A stretch of 64,000 nt of DNA from a virus. A program made the translations under genes and the position numbers. Location: positions 1 to 64,000 of IMG/VR virus record IMGVR_UViG_3300005748_000015, one strand, 5' to 3'. Positions 16,370 through 27,541 of this stretch are shown here, piece after piece. Each line of letters opens with the position of its first letter. The first letter of the stretch is position 1. Below the pieces are notes generated by a model. The model was not told where the DNA came from. It saw nothing but the letters and a program-made list of their open reading frames with translations, and searched no databases.

Positions 16370-18964
16370 ATGGCTATAGACAATTTTTTCAAAGACATAG
16401 GTGGCAAGTTAGTTGCCAATAAATTTGAAGGTAACGATAATAAGGATCGATCTGGTGGTGATCCGCTTAAAAAGTTTACTGACGAAAATAAGCCTGAAAA
16501 AGAAGCCTTTTTTGCACCTAAAAATATAGAGCCAGAAAGGGCTGCTAGAATATACCCATATAGATTGCTGGTTATAGATGTTAGAGATAGCAAAATAATC
16601 AAAGGTAGTAGTCCTGATAGTTTTTATTTCAATTACAACGAAGAAACTGGTGGTACAAATTTTGTTCAACAAAATTATCTTCAATGGGAGTTTGTATTGC
16701 CAATTACACCTCAGCAGTTAAGTATAACAGATCAGTTTGCAATCAATACAACAGCTACAATGCGTGGTATAGTAGAAGAGCACAATGGTGTAAAATTCAA
16801 AATGATCCAAGCTTCTGGTACAACGGGTATTTTCCCAATTAGAAACTCTTTTGAAGACCCAGACAGTGGTACGGGTCAAAGTTTATTTGGAGGTACTGCC
16901 GAAGCTTTGGGTGGTCTTATAGATGCCGCCAATGCCTTAAGCGGTACAAAGCCTAAACCTACTGTTGGTGTAAACTCTGAAGACCCTAAAAAGAGTAAAA
17001 ATACTGGTTACTATCAGGCTATGTTGTTACAACAATTTCTTGAACAATATGCTATTGCAAAAAAGAAACCTATAAACAAACATTGGAGATTAGTTTTTGA
17101 CTGTCCAAAAATGAATGAATCTTTTATTGTAACACCAATGCAGTACACTGTAACAAAAAGTCAAAGAAGTCCTGGTGAGCATTTGTTTAATATGCAATTT
17201 AAAGCGTGGAAAAGGGTAGATTTAAAAGCCAAAACAACTCCAAGATCAAAAGATATTCAAGTACTTACCCCTAATTTTTTTCAAACATTAAACAATTCAC
17301 TTGATAATGCTAGAAGTTTAATGAGTGCATCTTTAAATGTTATCAAAGCTGTAAGAGCTGACTTTAGAAAACCATTTGATACATTGAGAAAGGTCACATT
17401 GCTTGCTAAAGATTTTGCAGGAATAGGCGTTGCTATTTCTGACTTACCAAATCAAATTGCCAAAGATATTACATCAGCAACACAGAAAAGAACAAGAGAT
17501 TTAGCTTTATCTGTTGGTAGCAACGCTATTAGTGGGGGAGAGGTTAGAAGCCGTGTTGCACAAGATAAAATCAACAAAACATCAGCGTTAATTACAGAAG
17601 AAGGAAACAAAACTGAAGGACAAGATGGAGATGCTATAGAAAGCGGTGAAGGTGGAAAAGAAGCTAGAGATGCTAGAAGAACATCTCCTTTAAATAACGT
17701 CTTTAATGAGCCGGAGGCTAACTTTGATTTTTTTAATTCAATTTCAATAGATGAACTAGACCTTACACCCCAACAAACAGCTGCAATTCAGGATGAAATT
17801 GAGCTTAATTCTTTAATTTCAGTAGAAGAAATAAAAGAATTTGTCAAAGAAACTCAGGGCCTAATATTAGACCTTACTAATAACTTTGGTGCTGGAGATG
17901 ATTTTTTCTCGGAAGTTTTTGGTAGGCCAACACCTAGAAAACGTGCCACACCAATGACAATTGAAGAGTTTGAATTAATAAAAACTCTTGAAGATGCAGT
18001 TTTAAATATGAATATGCTTGTGGCAACTAGAGAGTTTGATGATGTTAGGACGCAAAGTTCTTTAGAATATGTTGGTGGTTTAGCTGAAGAATCTGGCATT
18101 GAATTTGACTCTTCTGCAACTGCAAAGTATTTAGCACCAGTACCCTTTGGTCTTACTATAGAGGAAATATCAGCAAGATACCTTGGTGATCCTGATAGGT
18201 ATAACGAAATCATTACTTTAAACAATTTAAGATCACCATATATAGATGAAGATGGATTTTTCTATGAATTATTATCCAATGGAGATGGTAGACAGTTCAA
18301 TATTGGAGATAATCAAAATTTATTTATAGGGCAAAAAATACAAATATCAAGTAATACAATACCAATGTTTACAAGGAAAATTACAGCAATAGAAAGAATT
18401 ACGGACGATAACTATTTGATTGCAGTAGATGGCTTGAGTAATTTGAACAACTTAACAACAAATGACAACGCTAAAATTAAAGCTTTCTTACCGGGAACTG
18501 TAAATAGTCAAAATCAAATATATATACCATCTGATCAAGCTGTCGATGAAGAGCCTAGAACATTTGATATTCCATTTTTGCAAGGCGATGATTTAACAGG
18601 CCTTTCAAAAGTAGATTGGTTGTTGGATGATAATGGAGATGTTGTTTTAAATTCATTTGGTGAAGCTGCTTTAGCAAATGGTTTAAATAATCTAGTACAA
18701 GCTTTAAAAATGAAAGTGGCAACTCAAAAAGGAAGCCTACTTGCAGATGAAAACTTTGGCCTTGGACTAGTTCCTGGGGTAAATGTTACAGAAATCAATA
18801 TTGAAACAGTATTGGGCGATTTAAGAGATATGGTATTGCAAGATTCTAGATTTGAGGCTGTAGATAAAATTGAAGTCAATCTTTTAGGGTCGGACTTATC
18901 TATTACAATTCAAGCTAGATTAGCTAATGGAAGAGGTATCTTTCCTATTGACTTTACAGTGTAA
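16370..18964 (+). CDS. Baseplate protein: tube-initiator-like N-domain, LysM-like domain and gp25-like C-domain
   Basis: FVLPITPQQLSI N-term; GLTIEEISARYLGDPDRYNEIITLNNL (LysM-like); NLVQALKMKVATQKGS..FGLG (gp25/gpW-like). Confidence 0.7.
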   Translation: MAIDNFFKDIGGKLVANKFEGNDNKDRSGGDPLKKFTDENKPEKEAFFAPKNIEPERAARIYPYRLLVIDVRDSKIIKGSSPDSFYFNYNEETGGTNFVQQNYLQWEFVLPITPQQLSITDQFAINTTATMRGIVEEHNGVKFKMIQASGTTGIFPIRNSFEDPDSGTGQSLFGGTAEALGGLIDAANALSGTKPKPTVGVNSEDPKKSKNTGYYQAMLLQQFLEQYAIAKKKPINKHWRLVFDCPKMNESFIVTPMQYTVTKSQRSPGEHLFNMQFKAWKRVDLKAKTTPRSKDIQVLTPNFFQTLNNSLDNARSLMSASLNVIKAVRADFRKPFDTLRKVTLLAKDFAGIGVAISDLPNQIAKDITSATQKRTRDLALSVGSNAISGGEVRSRVAQDKINKTSALITEEGNKTEGQDGDAIESGEGGKEARDARRTSPLNNVFNEPEANFDFFNSISIDELDLTPQQTAAIQDEIELNSLISVEEIKEFVKETQGLILDLTNNFGAGDDFFSEVFGRPTPRKRATPMTIEEFELIKTLEDAVLNMNMLVATREFDDVRTQSSLEYVGGLAEESGIEFDSSATAKYLAPVPFGLTIEEISARYLGDPDRYNEIITLNNLRSPYIDEDGFFYELLSNGDGRQFNIGDNQNLFIGQKIQISSNTIPMFTRKITAIERITDDNYLIAVDGLSNLNNLTTNDNAKIKAFLPGTVNSQNQIYIPSDQAVDEEPRTFDIPFLQGDDLTGLSKVDWLLDDNGDVVLNSFGEAALANGLNNLVQALKMKVATQKGSLLADENFGLGLVPGVNVTEINIETVLGDLRDMVLQDSRFEAVDKIEVNLLGSDLSITIQARLANGRGIFPIDFTV

Positions 18965-19093: not shown

Positions 19094-22000
19094 ATGGCTG
19101 GTCTACCTACACCGAAATCAAGAGAACAAATACTTTCAGAAATGCTCACAGAATATGTAGGGCTTACAGGTATCAACGATCTTAATACTGGTTCTGTTAT
19201 TACCCAGTTTTTTGATGTTGTTGCTAGATCGGTTGCACGTACATCAGGCGATATATTTCAAATACTTAGAGATTTTTCTGTAGAAAGAGCTACAGGAGAA
19301 GCACTAAACAGAATAGGTAGGGAAGAGCGTGTTTATAGAAATACAGCTCAAGTTTCTAGTGGTACAGTAAAAGTTACCGATACAAGTTTTGAAAAAATAT
19401 CAACAAAAATATACTCTGGTGCTCCTTCCCCAAACATTGGAACGTCTGTTATCAAAGTTTCAGATGCTTCTAACTGGCCAACTTCAGGCAAGCTATACAT
19501 TGGTAGGGGAACTCCAAATATTGAGGGTCCAATTAATTTTAGTGCTACTGCTCAAGTAGGTGCTTTTTGGGAAATAACTCTTGACTCTCCAACAACTAAA
19601 TTTCATAACATTTCTGAGTCAGTAATTCTTGGACAGGGTGGGACTAGAAATATACCAATCAACACAGTAGTTTCATCTCCTGGTGCTGGCGCAACTCCTG
19701 CTATAAATTATAACGTATCTTCTAATGCACTTTTACTTGATGGTGAAAATGTAAATAATAATGTAAAAGTTACAGCTCAAGAGCCTGGGTCTTTAGCAAA
19801 CGCTCCTGCTGGTGCTATTACTGAATTTTCATCTACACCATTTCCGGGTGCGGCTGTAATAAATGTTACACCTTTTACAACTGGTTCTGATGAAGAATCT
19901 GACAATGATTATAGAGATAGAATTAAGAAAGAAAGACTATCAAGAGGTCTTGGTACAGCTCTTGCGGTAAAAAATGCCGTACTTGGGGCACAAGCTTCTG
20001 ATGAAAATGCCAGAGTAACTTCAAATGAAATTGATACTACCAATCCTGAGCAAACAATTTTAATTATTGATAACGGCCAAGGATACGAAGAAAAAACCGA
20101 AGGTGTAGGGCTTGAATTTGTAGTTGACTCTGCTATTGGTGGTGAACAAAATTTTCAATTACAAACTGGTGGAAGGCAAACGTCTATTGCCAAAGCTTTT
20201 CTTGAATCATCAATAAGTGCTCCTTATGACATTAGAAGTTTAGATAAATTATCTGTTTTAGTTGGCGGTATTATTTCTGAGCATATATTTCCTGAAGGAT
20301 CATTTAGAGCTGAAGGTGCTGCTACAGCTTTTGAGGTTGTATCAAGTATAAATGACAATCCTGACTTAACATTTGAAGCTACAACTTCTGAAAGTGGAAC
20401 TAAAGTTATTATCAGAGCAAAAGCTGAAGACAATGAATTTTTAAAAATAACAGCCCCATCAATTGGTGTCGATGCTGCTCCAAAACTAGGATTTCCTTCA
20501 AATGAAATCGCTACTGTTTTGCTTTACAAAAATAGAGAGCTTTTAAATAAAAACGGAAGATCAGCATTTGTTGTCACTAAAAATCAATTTACTTGGTCTA
20601 CAAGTATTACAAACAATGATACTCTCATAATTTCTGTTGATGGAACAGAGTCTGTAACTTATACATTTAAAAATGAAGATTTTATTGCCGAAGGAAACTA
20701 CGCAACTGTTAGTCCTCAAAATTCTCTTGAATCGTGGGCAAATGTAATCAACAATAAGATTACAGGTGTAACTGCTGAAGTTAATGGTGAGCAATTAAAA
20801 TTAACGTCTAACTTAGGACCAAAAAATAGAGCTGCTATCGTAATCGATCCGGCATCTGACCTTGTTGATAAGGGTATGTTTTCAAGTGATTTGGGGCTTA
20901 CATCTCAAGGTAATGAGGCTGACTTTGAATTATCAAGAAATACAGCACAAATTAAACTTAATCAACCTTTAACAAAAGGTGATTCTTTAAATCTAGGTTC
21001 AGAATTTACTAGAGCTGAAATTCAAAGTAAACCAATTCTTGGTGGACAAACTACACTTTCAGATACAGGGTATGTATGGTTTGTGGTTGATGATCCTAGT
21101 GTAGAAGCTGTTGAAGTTGGGGTTACATCTGATACATTTATTAGTGTACTAAAACCAGGTGGTGGTATAGTAAGATATGAAAGTACATCTCCAAATGCTT
21201 TTGATAATGTACAAGTTGGGGATTACGTAATTGTCTGGTCGCCCGATCTTTCTGCTACAAATAGATTAGAAGCTCGTGTAAATGCAAAAACTTCTACAAC
21301 ATTAGATTTAAGAGTAACTGTTGATGAAGAAACTGCTGCTGTTGCTGAAGGGCCTATCTTTTTTACAGAAGGTTTTACTGTAGTTAGAACTGAATATACA
21401 CCGCAAAAAATCAAGGTAGATGCTGGCGTTTACAATATCAATGATATTGCAGTTATTATTGATGATCAATTGGAAAATGCAACAGCTACTGTTGAAAGTG
21501 ACGAAATATTTGTTTTTAGAACTAAAACAGAATCTAATAATGGCTCTTTTTTTATTGCCGATTTTAATGACGCAGCAAAAGCGTTGAATCTTGTAAAAAA
21601 TGCTTTTTCACAAAGTATAAATTCTCAAATTGCATTTTATGAAACAAATTTTTCTGATAGACAATTTCCTGCTTTTGTTCACGGAAAAATAACAACCGAT
21701 GCTTATGCAGACCCAATTGATAGTTATATTTTAACTATAGATGCTGATGAAGACCTTACTGCTCTTGGTCTTGATCCAGCTGGATGGATTTGTTTAGGGC
21801 AGCCTTATGGGATTGCTAATGATGTGCAATCAAAAGAGTGTGTTGAAATTGAAAAATATGTAGGAACAACTATTAGTATTGAAAATAGCTATCTTTACAA
21901 AAGAGGTAGAGTTGACGATAGATTCCACGTTGTAAATCCATATGACTTTGGACATGATGATACATTAGTTGCCGTTTTGGATGACGACCCAACTGGTAAA

Positions 22001-25000
22001 ACATTTAATATGCCGTTATACAGAACGGCTGTTACAAATACTACACTAACAGTCAATCCTAATAACTTTAGAGCTTACGATCAAGAAGGTGGAGATGTTG
22101 AGTTTGTAGAATTTTTTGGTACTGATTTTAAATTTGATAATTATAAAGTTTTAATGCAAGCAAAAAATGTTATTGACCCTTCTTCTGCTGTCAATGATGA
22201 TGCTATTTTATATAGAGCATCAGAGTGGGGTAGGTCAGGTGAAAAAGTTGGTGTTGGATATTTTTATCCTACAACTCCAAATCAAACCGTTCAACATATT
22301 ACGAGTGTAGGTGAATTAGTAAATATTAAAGTATTCTTAAACTCTGGGCCTTCAAGAACTACAACTATAACAGGAACGACAGAGTGGAATGTTAGTATAT
22401 CTCCATTAAATCCAAGTGTAGATTTGGTTACATATGCGTGGACGGGCGTAGGAAGTGATCCGGGGTTAGGAAGTGTTAATAGTGGGGATTATGTTTCTAT
22501 TATTACTACTGGAGAATTTTCTACAGCCAATCAAGGTGCTTACAGAGTAGACAGTGCTACAGCAACAACTTTTACAGTTAAAAGAGCTACCGATGCAGCT
22601 GAAACACAGTCAAATGTTGCTACTTTAGAAACAAATACAATTTCTTTCTTTGAATCAACTGATACAACTGCCCAAGAAATTGTAGATTATGTAAATGCCA
22701 ATGTTACAGATTATATTACAGCAGAAATTGTTCAAGATGGAACAACTGCACTTGATGGTAGCGGATTAATAACAAGCTCAACAGGTGAAGATGTTGATTT
22801 TGCATATGAATATGTTAGATTTAAAGACGGTAAAAATTATATTTTATCTAGTGATATAAACGCTTCAATTGTTAACCCTCAGTTTATATTTAAAACACCT
22901 TTGGAACTTCCAAACTTTGATACAAATACGGTTAACGCTTATGCTTTTAACAAAAGTGAAGAAATAAAAATAATACCTCAGACTTCTATTCAAGTTACTG
23001 AGTTTTTAAATGTACTAGCTGTAACAGGATTTACAACTTTAGGTCAAATTAAATCTGTTGAAAGAAATACAAGTGTGCAATTATCAACAGACACTCTTGG
23101 CAATGATGGAGCAGTACAAATAGCTGGCGGTAATGCTGGTTCAGCGAATGCAGCTATTGAAGGTAGTGCAAGTGGTTTAGGCAATCAAGATAATGAAAAA
23201 ACTTTAACTAGTATTTTATCTGCAACTGCTGGAGGTTTTCATTCAGATCAGTGGGTAAAAGTTTTTGCTTCTGAAAGACAGAAAAAAACAACTGCAATAA
23301 ATGCTCTTAATTCCGTTAAAATTTCTGGCAACAGTCCGACATTAGGTAATTCAAAAATAGAAGTATTTAATAAAAATGTTGGCCAAAGACTTTTTGGAAG
23401 AAACAGATACTACACAAGAACTCGTGGTAGAACTTTTAAAGTTGAAAAACAAGGTCAATTTACTTGTTTTTCTTGGGACGGTAATGGTACAGAGCCATAC
23501 TTTTCAAAAACTGTAAATTTAAATGATGTTGATCCAAAAAATGTATCGGTATCTGCAAACGGCCAAACGGGAGTTACTGACTACAATGTTTTAGAAGGTA
23601 GCATCTCTTTTGAAGAAGTTGCAATTGGAGATATTGTTGATATAACAGGTTTTTCTCAAGATGGAAACAATGGTACATTTAAAGTATTAGGAACTTCTGA
23701 AGATGGAAAAACTTTAAGAGTTAGAAATCCAAATGCCGTTATTAGTAGTGGTAATGTTAATGAAATTCAATCATTGACATTTGATGCTGTTCCATCTACA
23801 GGTGATTTTACTTTAAATTTTGATGGAGAGATTACAGGTTCAATTCCTTATAATGCTGTAGCTGGTGATATAGAAACAGAACTAGAACTTCTTTCAAATA
23901 TAACTGATGTAAATGTTTCAGGTGATTTTTCAGTTGGGTTTACAATTGAATTTGCAGGAGTTAATTCCAATACTGATGTTAGTAGTTTAGTTGTAGAAAC
24001 TAATACTTTAGATGTTGCCATTAATGAATTTGAACGATATGATTTTTCTGGAATTTCAGGCTCAGAACTAGACGATATATCTCAAGTAGAAGAATTAGAT
24101 TTTACTGCTGTTACAAGTGCTAACTTAGACCAAACAAATCAAATTGAAGAGTATGATTTTACATTCCAAAGTTTAAGTGGTTCCACAATGAATGCTACTC
24201 AACAAGTAGAAGAGTGGAGCTTTGATGGTTTAGTTGGTTCTAGCTTTGATATATTACCGACAAAAAAATTACAATTATCAGGTAGTTATGCTTATCTATG
24301 GTTTAATGTAACAGATGGTTTAAATGCACAGTCAGACCCAGGAGGTACAGGGCTTGCAATTCAAGTTGATGTTTTATCTTCTGATAATGACGACACTCTT
24401 GCTACCAAAGCAGATGATGCCATTGATTTAGCAATTAATGGTGTTAAACAAATTGAACAATGGGATTTTGACACTTTAACAGGTGCTAGTTTTGACACTC
24501 TAACTGGTAAAAGTTTGCAATTAGGTGGAAGTTTAGCTTACGTTTGGTTTAATGTAACTGATGGTGTAAACGTACAAGCAGACCCAGGTGGAACTGGGGC
24601 AGGAATTCAAGTCGATATTTTAACCGCTGATAATGATCTACAGTTAGCATCAAAAGCAGAAGCTGCAATCACTCTAGCAGCAATCGCAGGGATTGATACT
24701 GTATTATCTAGCATTGATATATTAGAAGTAACTTATGATGCTGCAAACATTACAGATGGTAGTGATGTCGATACAGGTGCTATTTACACCAAAGTACAGG
24801 ATGGTGTTGATATAACTTTAGCTTCTGGTATTTCATCTTCTTCAGCTCCTGCCGATGTCTTAACTATAGTATATGATAGTGGGGATATTACAGATGGTGA
24901 TGATGCTGATGGTGGTGGAGTAGTTTTAACTATTACCCAACAAGGGCTTGAGGCACGATCATTTCAACTTGCTGGAGACTATGCGTATGTGTGGTACAAT

Positions 25001-27541
25001 GTAACTGATGGGTCAAATGTACAAGCAGACCCAGGTGGAAATGGTACTGGAATTCAAGTCGATGTTCTTGTGGCTGATGACGATAATGTGTTAGCAAACA
25101 GAACTTCCCTTGCAATTACTGCTGCATTGCCGATAGCTGGTATTTTATCAGTTTCAGATGCACTTGGTATTTTAACTGTAAACTATTCAGGTGGAGACAT
25201 TACCAACGGTAGTGATGTATCAGCTGGAGTTGCATATAGTGTTACTCAAGATGGCGTTAATTCAAAATCAATTCAGCTAGGTGGTAACTACGGTTATGTG
25301 TGGTTTAATGTAACTGATGGGGTCGCTACTCAATCTGATTCTGGTAATCTTGGAACAGGAATTCAAGTTGATATTTTAGCTGCTGACGATGCAATTTCAA
25401 TTGCCGGAAAAGCAGCAACAGCTATCGACACAGCTGCGGCTGGAATATTAGGATTAAAAAGTGCATCCAATGTTGATGAGATTTTAACTCTTAATTATGA
25501 AGTTGGTGCAATTAGCAATAGTTCCGATATAAATAGTGGAATTGTTCCAACAGAAATTACCGATGGATATGCTTCAAAATCAATTCAATTAGCAGAAAGT
25601 TCAGCTTATGTTTGGTTTGATGTAACTGACGGTGCAAATATACAATCAAATCCGGGTGGAACTGGGACGGCTATTAAAGTTGATGTATTACTTGCTGATG
25701 TAGCTGCTGATATTGCAAACAAAGCTGCTCTTGCAATTACTGCTGCATTACCTATTAGTCCAATTTTTAGTGCAACAGATAATGGTAATAGTTTAGAAGT
25801 TGCTTATGATTTTACTCCAACAATTTTTGGCTCAGATGTTTCTACTGGAGCTGTTGTTACTTATATTGAAAATGATAGTAATGAAATTACAGTTACCGAA
25901 GAAGTAAAAGGTTCTGTATCAGGAGATTTTTCAGTAAGTACAGAAATTCAAGAAGGAGATTCTGTAATTATTGGAAGTGATTTTAGTACTCTTAACCAAG
26001 GTATCTATAGATTAATAAGAAAATTTAAAGATTCTTTTTATATTGACAATCAAAACTCTATTGAAGAAGAAATTACAATGGCAGACCAATTAATTGATAT
26101 TGGGGCTGATATATCAACAAATTTTAATGTAGAAAAAATTGACGGTCTTACAAAACTATATTGGGCAGGAGCTGGAGTTGAACCTTCCTTTGAAGATTTA
26201 AGACCTGGTGATATTATTACATTAGGTGCTGCTTTTGATGTAAATAATCAAGGTGATTTTTATGTTGCAGATTCTGGAGAAAAATTACAACAAATTACAC
26301 GTTACACTCAATCAAGAGGTATCGACATCACTTCTGGGCAGTACGGATTTTTAAATAGTACTGATGATGCTACCGAATATGCCTTTTGGTATAATGTAGA
26401 TGGTGCTGGTGGTGCTCCAACACTTCCAGGGAAGACTTTGATTGAGATTCCAGTTTTAGACACAGATGATGCAAACGAGGTAGCGGTTAAAAAAGCAGCT
26501 GTATTAAATAATACACCTTATGATGCAGATTTTTCTGCTGAAGTTGATGGTGACGATGTTATTGTTACAAATGAATTAGCCGGGCCATGTACTGCTGGTT
26601 CAAACGGAAATATTGATGGACAATTTTTTGTTGAAGTACTACAGGTAGGCAGAAGAAACTTTGTAGACTATCTAAATGTTGCTGGCGTAAGTGAATCAGG
26701 GTTGGTAGCTGCTGCTGATATAGAAATTCACAGAGAAGCTATTCAATTTAAAGACTATGATGGGATTGTTGAAGGTGATGTATTTGTAATTTCAGATGCT
26801 TTCTTAGGTGAAAACAATGTTGGAAGATATACTGTAAATGAGATATTAAGTGACAAAGAAATTGTTGTCACTGGTGGCATGGAAAGTGTTGATAAAACAT
26901 TGTTAGATTTTAACTTTAACAAATTATATGTTGAAGAGTCAACACCTTATGTTGGCTATAAACAAATTGAACTTATTGCTACAAACCCATCAAATTTAAA
27001 TGCTAAAAATGTTGTTTTTACAACATTTAATCAATTTGATAAGATTGGTGAAATCGCTGGCGTATCAATGAGTGCTATGGGTAAATTAGAACTACCAACG
27101 GAAATTGTAAGAGGTGTTGATAGCTACAAATTCCATACAGGATTAATTGCTGAAGCAAATAGAATTGTTTATGGAGAGCCTAGAGATAATACCACATATC
27201 CTGGGGTTGCAGCTGCTGGTGCAGAAATTTTTATTAAAGCTCCACTTGTTAGAAGGGTTGAAGTTTCCATTGATGTACGTGTTAAAACTGGCGTTCCATT
27301 TAGCACAATTGTTACAGAAGTTAGAAACTCTATTGCAGCACTAATTGGTTCAAACCCTGTTGGCCAACCAATACCAATTTCAAATATTGTTAGTAATGTA
27401 GATGCGATTGTTGGGGTGCAAGCTGTTGCAATTAGTTCGCCACAATATGATGCGCAAAATGATGTAATTAGAATTAATGCTGGAGAAAAGGCACTTGTGT
27501 TAGACGCTATTGCTGACATTTTAGTGTCGAAGATTGACTGA
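19094..27541 (+). CDS. Giant baseplate J/gp6-like wedge protein (2815 aa) with nested inserted domains
   Basis: N-terminal DLNTGSV..ATGEALNRIG and GSDEESDNDYRDRI..GT motifs; C-terminal GQPIPISNIV..GV..V wedge motif. Confidence 0.85.
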   Translation: MAGLPTPKSREQILSEMLTEYVGLTGINDLNTGSVITQFFDVVARSVARTSGDIFQILRDFSVERATGEALNRIGREERVYRNTAQVSSGTVKVTDTSFEKISTKIYSGAPSPNIGTSVIKVSDASNWPTSGKLYIGRGTPNIEGPINFSATAQVGAFWEITLDSPTTKFHNISESVILGQGGTRNIPINTVVSSPGAGATPAINYNVSSNALLLDGENVNNNVKVTAQEPGSLANAPAGAITEFSSTPFPGAAVINVTPFTTGSDEESDNDYRDRIKKERLSRGLGTALAVKNAVLGAQASDENARVTSNEIDTTNPEQTILIIDNGQGYEEKTEGVGLEFVVDSAIGGEQNFQLQTGGRQTSIAKAFLESSISAPYDIRSLDKLSVLVGGIISEHIFPEGSFRAEGAATAFEVVSSINDNPDLTFEATTSESGTKVIIRAKAEDNEFLKITAPSIGVDAAPKLGFPSNEIATVLLYKNRELLNKNGRSAFVVTKNQFTWSTSITNNDTLIISVDGTESVTYTFKNEDFIAEGNYATVSPQNSLESWANVINNKITGVTAEVNGEQLKLTSNLGPKNRAAIVIDPASDLVDKGMFSSDLGLTSQGNEADFELSRNTAQIKLNQPLTKGDSLNLGSEFTRAEIQSKPILGGQTTLSDTGYVWFVVDDPSVEAVEVGVTSDTFISVLKPGGGIVRYESTSPNAFDNVQVGDYVIVWSPDLSATNRLEARVNAKTSTTLDLRVTVDEETAAVAEGPIFFTEGFTVVRTEYTPQKIKVDAGVYNINDIAVIIDDQLENATATVESDEIFVFRTKTESNNGSFFIADFNDAAKALNLVKNAFSQSINSQIAFYETNFSDRQFPAFVHGKITTDAYADPIDSYILTIDADEDLTALGLDPAGWICLGQPYGIANDVQSKECVEIEKYVGTTISIENSYLYKRGRVDDRFHVVNPYDFGHDDTLVAVLDDDPTGKTFNMPLYRTAVTNTTLTVNPNNFRAYDQEGGDVEFVEFFGTDFKFDNYKVLMQAKNVIDPSSAVNDDAILYRASEWGRSGEKVGVGYFYPTTPNQTVQHITSVGELVNIKVFLNSGPSRTTTITGTTEWNVSISPLNPSVDLVTYAWTGVGSDPGLGSVNSGDYVSIITTGEFSTANQGAYRVDSATATTFTVKRATDAAETQSNVATLETNTISFFESTDTTAQEIVDYVNANVTDYITAEIVQDGTTALDGSGLITSSTGEDVDFAYEYVRFKDGKNYILSSDINASIVNPQFIFKTPLELPNFDTNTVNAYAFNKSEEIKIIPQTSIQVTEFLNVLAVTGFTTLGQIKSVERNTSVQLSTDTLGNDGAVQIAGGNAGSANAAIEGSASGLGNQDNEKTLTSILSATAGGFHSDQWVKVFASERQKKTTAINALNSVKISGNSPTLGNSKIEVFNKNVGQRLFGRNRYYTRTRGRTFKVEKQGQFTCFSWDGNGTEPYFSKTVNLNDVDPKNVSVSANGQTGVTDYNVLEGSISFEEVAIGDIVDITGFSQDGNNGTFKVLGTSEDGKTLRVRNPNAVISSGNVNEIQSLTFDAVPSTGDFTLNFDGEITGSIPYNAVAGDIETELELLSNITDVNVSGDFSVGFTIEFAGVNSNTDVSSLVVETNTLDVAINEFERYDFSGISGSELDDISQVEELDFTAVTSANLDQTNQIEEYDFTFQSLSGSTMNATQQVEEWSFDGLVGSSFDILPTKKLQLSGSYAYLWFNVTDGLNAQSDPGGTGLAIQVDVLSSDNDDTLATKADDAIDLAINGVKQIEQWDFDTLTGASFDTLTGKSLQLGGSLAYVWFNVTDGVNVQADPGGTGAGIQVDILTADNDLQLASKAEAAITLAAIAGIDTVLSSIDILEVTYDAANITDGSDVDTGAIYTKVQDGVDITLASGISSSSAPADVLTIVYDSGDITDGDDADGGGVVLTITQQGLEARSFQLAGDYAYVWYNVTDGSNVQADPGGNGTGIQVDVLVADDDNVLANRTSLAITAALPIAGILSVSDALGILTVNYSGGDITNGSDVSAGVAYSVTQDGVNSKSIQLGGNYGYVWFNVTDGVATQSDSGNLGTGIQVDILAADDAISIAGKAATAIDTAAAGILGLKSASNVDEILTLNYEVGAISNSSDINSGIVPTEITDGYASKSIQLAESSAYVWFDVTDGANIQSNPGGTGTAIKVDVLLADVAADIANKAALAITAALPISPIFSATDNGNSLEVAYDFTPTIFGSDVSTGAVVTYIENDSNEITVTEEVKGSVSGDFSVSTEIQEGDSVIIGSDFSTLNQGIYRLIRKFKDSFYIDNQNSIEEEITMADQLIDIGADISTNFNVEKIDGLTKLYWAGAGVEPSFEDLRPGDIITLGAAFDVNNQGDFYVADSGEKLQQITRYTQSRGIDITSGQYGFLNSTDDATEYAFWYNVDGAGGAPTLPGKTLIEIPVLDTDDANEVAVKKAAVLNNTPYDADFSAEVDGDDVIVTNELAGPCTAGSNGNIDGQFFVEVLQVGRRNFVDYLNVAGVSESGLVAAADIEIHREAIQFKDYDGIVEGDVFVISDAFLGENNVGRYTVNEILSDKEIVVTGGMESVDKTLLDFNFNKLYVEESTPYVGYKQIELIATNPSNLNAKNVVFTTFNQFDKIGEIAGVSMSAMGKLELPTEIVRGVDSYKFHTGLIAEANRIVYGEPRDNTTYPGVAAAGAEIFIKAPLVRRVEVSIDVRVKTGVPFSTIVTEVRNSIAALIGSNPVGQPIPISNIVSNVDAIVGVQAVAISSPQYDAQNDVIRINAGEKALVLDAIADILVSKID

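Follow-up and report, generated by a model that had tools for sequence, protein, structure and literature searches.

We analysed a 64,000-nucleotide stretch of viral DNA (positions 1 to 64,000 of IMG/VR record IMGVR_UViG_3300005748_000015; hereafter the window), which comes from a phage of low guanine plus cytosine content, and one giant gene within it. This gene is a single open reading frame (ORF) on the + strand, 19094..27541, that encodes a protein of 2815 amino acids (aa). Residues 185-280 match the Pfam profile PF04865 (Baseplate_J) with 44.5 bits against a cut-off of 21.1, the 2815-aa protein matches phrog_6 (baseplate wedge subunit; PHROG 6) with an E value of 1.2e-27, and the ORF upstream of it, at 16370-18964, hits phrog_975 (baseplate protein) with an E value of 6.2e-17. 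Profile matches and gene neighborhood together assign the protein as a Baseplate_J-like baseplate wedge subunit. Within it lies a region that, in our judgment, is likely to be a recursive, Russian-doll stack of domains. All features described below lie on the + strand, and protein residues follow from nucleotide positions as (nt - 19094)/3 + 1.

The repeat stack proper comprises 622 residues (aa 1641-2262) and contains five lead strands of 19-21 residues together with five α/β bodies of ≈100 residues. The lead motifs lie at aa 1645 (NEFERYDF), 1664 (QVEELDF), 1683 (QIEEYDF), 1704 (QVEEWSF), and 1786 (QIEQWDF), and the body cores (YxWFNVTDG) lie at aa 1734, 1816, 1965, 2068, and 2172. Lead 1 (L1; aa 1644-1662, 24023..24079), lead 2 (L2; aa 1663-1681, 24080..24136), lead 3 (L3; aa 1682-1702, 24137..24199), and lead 4 (L4; aa 1703-1723, 24200..24262) follow one another directly, and after them comes the N-terminal part of body 1 (B1), with its strands and helix (aa 1724-1784, 24263..24445; positions 2-67 of the body hidden Markov model (HMM)). 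Body 1 breaks off after the helix, near aa 1784, and resumes at aa 1905 (VDITLASG..VLTIVYDSGDITD..TQQG) with its C-terminal part (aa 1905-1951, 24806..24946), which is recognized by HMM positions 55-99 and by its grouping in trees. The insert that splits it is a complete lead-plus-body unit of 120 residues (aa 1785-1904, 24446..24805), the innermost intact unit, formed by lead 5 (L5; aa 1785-1805) and body 2 (B2; aa 1806-1904). Bodies 3 (B3; aa 1952-2054, 24947..25255), 4 (B4; aa 2055-2158, 25256..25567), and 5 (B5; aa 2159-2262, 25568..25879) complete the stack. The full chain order is thus the N-terminal half of an outer barrel, an inner barrel, a domain that we call NEIQ, L1 to L4, the N-terminal part of B1, L5 with B2, the C-terminal part of B1, B3 to B5, the strand NEITVTEEVKG, the strand ..GDFSVST, and the C-terminal half of the outer barrel.

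A lead HMM recovers the five leads of the window protein with 27-32 bits, and a body HMM recovers the five bodies, at 149-158 bits each and the split one in two pieces of 76 and 16 bits. Both HMMs were trained on the window's own copies, and recovery of those copies is a test of specificity only; across all ORFs of at least 80 aa in the window, nothing else rose above noise except a weak, diverged sixth body match at aa 2427-2503. Judged by these profiles, insert and host belong to one domain family. An earlier reading of this DNA by a model that saw only the sequence and its ORF translations (the original prediction) had reported five strands and five bodies, in agreement with the HMM counts of 5 and 5, and every position that it gave for the leads, the bodies, and the split body falls on the motif that it named. 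The DNA identity among copies that it described is also borne out: the five body copies are in register and 60-83% identical, the 22-bp exact match at 24572 and 25019 is present, and a repeat of lead plus N-terminal body part extends over 205 nt at 71% identity with a spacing of 246 nt.

To place this arrangement among related proteins, we compared it with 22 proteins returned by a homolog search with aa 1440-2330, seven of which bear the stack; with the window protein and one viral locus (L001), these make nine stack-bearing sequences. The HMMs count five leads and five bodies in the window protein, P0002 (94% identical to it), and P0004, four and four in P0003, P0006, P0007, P0008, and L001, and six and six in P0005 alone. 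Leads equal bodies in all nine, where the original prediction had offered strand and body counts that vary independently as evidence that would speak against it. In the proteins with four units, the first body is unsplit. Trees of the N-terminal and C-terminal body halves, built without P0002 and the short homologs, group both halves of the window's B1 with the unsplit first body of P0003, P0006, and P0007, and B3, B4, and B5 with the second, third, and fourth bodies of the four-unit proteins; the C-terminal half of B2 groups apart from that of B1. In P0005, the split body contains two leads followed by two bodies. Each of the ≈2 gains separating these forms added precisely one lead plus one body. 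When the window and L001 are aligned end-free, the first unit of L001 falls on L5 and the N-terminal part of B2 (L5+B2-N), not on L4 and the N-terminal part of B1 (L4+B1-N); this unit is 59-68% identical to L4+B1-N versus 48-64% to L5+B2-N.

The outer layers also occur without the stack. P0009 (2192 aa) carries the NEIQ domain but is missing precisely aa 1641-2262, and P0019, P0023, and L007 have only a barrel within a barrel. The homolog alignment (A1) covers the 22 proteins except P0015, P0017, and P0021, and of 1465 representative matches the best 150 were examined, such that further forms may exist. At the sequence level, we regard the units, their order, their equal counts, and the layer-by-layer series of homologs as established.

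The module is found outside this stack as well. A contiguous single unit of lead and body occurs once each in P0128 (476 aa) and P0154 (546 aa), otherwise unrelated proteins, which indicates that the lead is part of the domain. In P0172 and P0173, 1359-aa baseplate wedge proteins of PHROG 219 with three bodies, a complete unit interrupts the first body behind its YYGWLNVTDG strand, and the body continues from AVQIDILLAD. The insertion loop differs here, lying by sequence between the YxWxNVTDG and IQVDIL strands (aa ≈370-760), and three upstream lead-like strands were identified by eye only. These proteins appear to represent a second baseplate wedge family that nests the module.

To determine which lead would belong to which body, we used AlphaFold2 to model aa 1440-2330 of the window protein (Model 1; 20-row alignment; model residue i = aa 1439+i) and aa 1425-2185 of P0005 (Model 2; 11-row alignment), and we searched both models with VIA-align against 48,161 Protein Data Bank (PDB) chains, keeping the best 50 matches per model. 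In Model 1, the leads are β strands with a block predicted local distance difference test (pLDDT) score of 58-83, each with a short helix after it, as the intact unit also has, and DSSP assigns a helix of 15-18 residues to each predicted unit. Fourteen of the Model 1 matches run from model residues 196-206 to 813-831, joining L1 with B5; three run from 222-224 to 719-720 (L2 with B4), three from 241-242 to 613-618 (L3 with B3), and 12 from 343-346 to 465 (L5 with B2). Another 17 extend from 31-44 to 843-847, joining the inner barrel with a strand that follows the stack, and one (33 to 106) covers the barrel alone. The aligned lengths are 48-102 residues over these spans, so single small PDB domains cover a lead and a body that lie up to 600 residues apart. 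The Model 2 matches comprise six for L1 with B5, seven for L2 with B4, 12 for L4 with the split B1, 22 for L5 with B2b, and three for L6 with B2, and all 50 follow the nesting rule.

Taken over both models, 82 of the 100 matches join a lead with its cognate body and none joins a lead with a non-cognate body or with another lead. The domain that is split in sequence is therefore compact in the predicted structures, and in four of the five units the predicted completing strand lies 60-600 residues away. The predicted pairings are L1-B5, L2-B4, L3-B3, L4-B1, and L5-B2; the first three are those that the original prediction had proposed (strand 24020 with body 25574, 24077 with 25262, and 24134 with 24950). 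Bodies that fold without the distal leads, or leads that pair with each other, would have contradicted it, and the models contain no lead-lead pairs. The best structural neighbors of the unit are domains of sheath proteins, namely 8kee_A residues 92-186 (Z 9.1 in both models; root mean square deviation 2.4 Å over 89 residues in Model 1 and 2.2 Å over 88 in Model 2) and 9cb9_A (Z 8.6 and 8.4). VIA-align typically gives a best Z of 7-8 where there is no clear match, and 8kee_A lies barely above this background, so homology to sheath proteins is no more than possible. No hybrid-motif (HABAS/SBHM) entry is among the best 50 matches of either model, an absence that does not exclude that family.

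We also examined whether the leads dock when they are supplied in trans. With ESMFold2 and nine-sequence alignments, B3-B5 (311 aa) were modeled with L1-L3 (62 aa) as a separate partner. The resulting ipSAE, an interface confidence score, was 0.66 versus 0.00 for the best of three controls; the mark used for this score is met by 58 of 80 solved complexes and two of 110 mismatched pairs, a calibration that is rough here because the alignments were custom. The runs share at least 96% of contacts, with a partner pLDDT of at least 84. Of the 25 pairs with the lowest predicted error, 18 join L1 (partner residues 7-13 and 22) with B5 (residues 211-305), and the remaining seven join L2 (22-29) with B4 (187-203). 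The interface on the bodies comprises residues 73-83 and 93-107, 178-189 and 196-211, and 281-291 and 300-310, a period of ≈104 residues, and its strands are the equivalent of ILEVTYD and the last strand of each body. All residues of L3 and parts of B3 lie inside this interface. The trans score is a model confidence, not a measurement, and both pieces derive from one chain.

Three host domains appear to enclose the stack. The outermost level begins with the N-terminal half of the outer barrel (FKVEKQGQFTCFSWDGNGTEPYFS; 23429..23506), which is conserved in all relatives, and ends with its C-terminal half (IQEGDSVIIGSDFSTLNQGIYRLIRKF..; 25946..26059), in which EGD..F..LN.G..IR is invariant in 20 aligned sequences. 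The original prediction had pointed to a sibling barrel with adjacent halves, and such a barrel (26120..26284) does lie 60 aa downstream: the N-terminal half of the outer barrel aligns to its positions 4-27 (score 49, matched by 0 of 1000 shuffles) and the C-terminal half to its positions 28-48 (score 43, matched by 3 of 1000 shuffles), so the two outer-barrel halves abut in the sibling. The second level is the inner barrel, with its main part at aa 1472-1545 (23507..23728) and a returning strand (..GDFSVSTE; 25913..25945) that corresponds to model strand 839-844; this level is supported by the 17 matches that end at 843-847 in the model. The resumption of the outer barrel at EIQEGD stands as originally described, with the correction that the inner-barrel strand DFSVST (≈25925-25942 according to the model) directly precedes it. 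The third level is the NEIQ domain, present without its last strand at aa 1556-1642 (23759..24019) and with that strand, NEITVTEEVKG, returning at 25880..25912. Its unit boundaries were taken from P0024, whose NEIQ repeats are tandem and complete and each end in a V.V.T..EG strand resembling ITVTEEVKG; in the stack-free P0009, the returning strand comes right after the NEIQ domain via a six-residue loop. The NEIQ level is less secure, being based on homology to tandem repeats.

Together, these data suggest how the region is built. The building block would be an α/β module of ≈120 residues in whose sheet the lead lies beside the C-terminal strands, which would make the module ends adjacent and let it fit in a loop of another domain. 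A whole inserted domain would be tolerated by the ≈14-residue connector after the lead and also by the loop after the helix, and copies of the module would be placed inside one another. The chain would run outward as the single strands L1, L2, L3, and L4, turn at the innermost units, and return as bodies, first the split B1 holding L5 and B2 and then B3, B4, and B5, each closing on its own lead. With outward strands and returning bodies, the ends of the stack would meet at one loop and neighboring units would be linked by two chain crossings instead of one. The whole stack would hang from a loop of the NEIQ domain, the one that precedes its last strand, and this domain would itself sit in a small barrel and that in a second one. 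The same order would allow the innermost unit to close first while L1 waits for B5, and the protein would have to fold from the inside out, the acidic leads perhaps remaining soluble while they await their bodies. The evidence supports a nesting depth of eight levels in the window (five of the module plus the NEIQ domain, the inner barrel, and the outer barrel) and, from the model of P0005, six module levels and nine levels in all. The ≈810-aa stalk of the original prediction holds as everything inside the outer barrel but not for the repeat stack itself, which measures 622 aa.

A number of observations weigh against this interpretation or limit it. Only one of the five models in each AlphaFold2 run was usable: mean pLDDT was 70.7 for Model 1 and 52.9, 49.1, 46.8, and 45.9 for the other four, and 68.0 for Model 2 and 56.2, 56.0, 39.9, and 34.9 for the others. 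The predicted template modeling (pTM) score was 0.32 in both models, and the alignments of 20 and 11 rows are shallow. The pairings were read from the first and last aligned model residue of each VIA-align match; L4 with B1 is missing from the best 50 matches of Model 1, L3 with B3 from those of Model 2, and L3-B3 accounts for none of the 25 lowest-error pairs in the trans test. The NEIQ domain was modeled at a pLDDT of 32-56 and its returning strand below 50, and the outer-barrel level is less secure, having sibling alignment and conservation as its basis. All nine stack-bearing sequences fall in one cluster at 50% identity, and the equal counts therefore reflect ≈2 independent gains rather than nine. 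The original prediction expected homologs with zero to five units; forms with zero, four, and five were found, as well as one with six, but no intermediate with one to three units occurs in the 22 proteins, the one viral locus, or the 51 metagenome loci. Finally, the monomer models and the trans test fit closure within one chain and strand exchange between subunits alike.

This last point raises the possibility that each wedge protein lends its leads to a neighboring copy in the baseplate, whose bodies they complete much like the donor strands of pili do in donor-strand complementation, with the stack acting as a cross-link and not as a self-contained hairpin stalk. We take the J-like protein to correspond to T4 gp6. 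According to Table 1 of a review of T4 (PMC3004832), gp6 is dimeric and present in 12 copies per baseplate, an arrangement that would suit such an exchange, as do the docking of leads that are supplied as a separate chain and the equality of lead and body counts, which exchange would require too. However, in both monomer models every unit is closed by its own chain at acceptable confidence; with only ≈14 residues, the connector from L4 to its body fits a nested arrangement; P0128 and P0154 carry single units that are contiguous and require no partner; and insertion into a loop demands adjacent ends of the insert. All of this makes exchange improbable. Less probable again, and already disfavored, is a plain tandem array of five self-contained bodies in which the acidic 19-21-aa repeats form a separate linker or small sheet. 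The four consecutive leads do resemble a short tandem repeat, and bodies 3-5 adjoin one another head to tail; nevertheless, lead and body counts are equal in nine of nine sequences and rose together twice, P0005 gained two leads and two bodies inside a body, and the contiguous unit of P0128 and P0154 includes the lead. An array also fails to account for one body being interrupted by 120 aa and four of five units being predicted as discontiguous, for VIA-align matches that join cognate lead and body (82 of 100) and never two leads, and for the trans score of 0.66 versus 0.00.

A third alternative bears solely on the history and does not alter the predicted topology: leads and bodies may have been duplicated in tandem separately under selection for balance, with nesting a consequence and not the mechanism of growth. 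L4+B1-N and L5+B2-N are 62% identical, in register, and 246 nt apart, which indicates that local duplication contributed to some extent. Among the leads, L4 and L5 resemble each other most (52% identity versus 26-42% for other pairs), and the C-terminal half of B2 groups away from that of B1. On the other hand, each duplication on its own would create a lead or a body that lacks its counterpart, and unbalanced forms make up none of the nine sequences, whereas whole units lie inside bodies in P0005 and P0172. We consider this history unlikely, though a more serious contender than the other two alternatives. The nested stack remains our preferred reading. Its final order suggests growth by insertion rather than by tandem duplication, although this order may have come about either by insertion of a whole unit that was later partly homogenized or by several duplications.

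If the nested architecture is correct, the region would project from each wedge protein as an exposed surface stalk or antenna, with a length set by the number of units, and would number twelve per baseplate if the copy number follows that of T4 gp6 (12 in the table of PMC3004832 cited above). Its role is probably in contact with the host surface. We favor this function because the slot that holds the stack takes varied exposed cargo, because the module is also found in other virion-type proteins, and because the nearest folds are peripheral sheath, nozzle, and baseplate domains (Z 6.9-9.1). A feature search of the ESM Atlas returned unnamed viral clusters (0.92-0.93) and a crAss auxiliary capsid family (0.91), which are unconfirmed pointers.

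The cargo itself varies among relatives. In L049 and L044, which are soil and freshwater relatives, an Ice-binding-like domain (PF11999) occupies the same barrel (L049:3001-4866 and L044:3001-4149; 113.5 and 94.2 bits) at a site that corresponds to window 23507-25945, and in many other relatives an unnamed domain of ≈95 aa (GTFTF..AGD.FTVG..LVAGTNF.IG..TAANLA..) replaces the NEIQ domain. These sequences suggest that the barrel loop is a general slot for cargo. In this widespread wedge family, the slot takes NEIQ, Ice-binding-like, and stack cargo and is a likely site for swapping host-contact functions. The NEIQ..GDFTLNFDG domain is itself very widespread, often with 5-21 matched stretches per protein, and the majority of the 1465 representative matches hit query positions 112-201, that is, the NEIQ domain.

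Several further features accompany the stack. A sixth, diverged unit (lead-like QQITRYT and body YAFWYNVDG..; 26285..26629), which gives the weak body-HMM match, is apparently inserted ahead of the last strand of the sibling barrel. It is present in most relatives, including stack-free ones, and in P0023, which lacks it, the sequence runs straight on; it may be an ancestral copy and the source of the stack module. A 21-nt direct repeat of 90% identity (23914-23934 and 25915-25935, 2001 nt apart) encodes VSGDFSV both within the NEIQ domain and in the strand that returns to the inner barrel; P0009 has both motifs, and the repeat is probably a chance or convergent strand sequence. The motif GD.V.I....F...N.G.Y/F.V recurs across window 19094-23400, for example near aa 720, 1185, and 1510, which suggests further small barrels, possibly nested too, between the N-terminal and C-terminal Baseplate_J parts.

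Comparison of the window with 50,697 phage records yielded no close relative, and the DNA of 23430-26050 gave zero matches in the same set. For the recombinase gene, the closest match among phage records is Myxococcus phage Mx1 (34% identity), which is uninformative about the host. In the Pfam copy used, no family reached its gathering score for the 891-aa region or for P0024, P0128, and P0172, and the module and the NEIQ domain are therefore without a Pfam name.

The natural series of zero, four, five, and six units, in which each outer layer also occurs alone in relatives, would make growth by self-insertion visible step by step, as it rarely is. The architecture also makes predictions. During synthesis, the earliest strands would stay unpaired until partners as many as 600 residues further along had been made, and tension on the two ends would open the stalk in a strict outside-in order. 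It also gives protein design a route to a rigid, length-adjustable projection from a single loop.

Our limited literature search on nested domain insertion in phages found no description of such a stack. A likely analogous role is played by the tandem immunoglobulin (Ig)-like decoration domains on phage structural proteins, which are surface-exposed, vary in number, and may bind cells weakly. Those arrays are beads on a string with one linker per neighbor, whereas four of the five stack units are discontiguous and neighbors are joined twice. In fold, the unit resembles the small α/β domains formed by T4 gp11 residues ≈81-186, which we take to be its finger domain, and by parts of the T7 tail complex (6r21_a), Mu (9khy_a), and the KP1 baseplate cup (9f4b_FD). 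These gp11-type peripheral domains match it over 88-101 residues with Z 6.9-7.5, scores of the common range, and occur there as single copies; the T4 review names a finger domain (PMC3004832). The same review describes nesting in the tail sheath protein gp18 of T4, with domain I in II, II in III, and III in IV (PMC3004832). Unlike the stack, gp18 contains four different domains, each nested a single time, and no module that recurs inside itself.

The closest parallel is Si3 of the cyanobacterial RNA polymerase β' subunit (rpoC2), for which PMC13114784 describes eight domains in a six-level recursive architecture; six levels is the depth of the case named in a 2026 survey of 2.7 million domains. 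In Si3, HABAS domains are inserted into HABAS domains, some of them swapping secondary-structure elements (PMC11515920). Like Si3, the baseplate stack would consist of one domain family repeatedly inserted into its own copies within a loop of a large protein. Its module probably differs from the HABAS/SBHM domains of Si3, the unit being predicted to be α/β with a helix; its preferred insertion site lies right after the first strand, which leaves an outgoing path of single strands; and its number of units varies among close relatives (four, five, and six). The stack would also be deeper than Si3 as described in those sources, with eight to nine levels including the three host domains and five to six of the same module. 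Nested and recursive insertion is thus already known, and what would be new here is a probably different fold, the baseplate setting, the predicted depth, the variable number of units, and a second independent occurrence. We put forward only tentatively, as a reading that may well prove too strong, that this is the deepest natural domain-in-domain recursion so far and a self-inserting, evolvable length ruler: a doubly tethered stalk that grows by one lead and one body per step, folds from the inside out, and arose independently in two wedge families.

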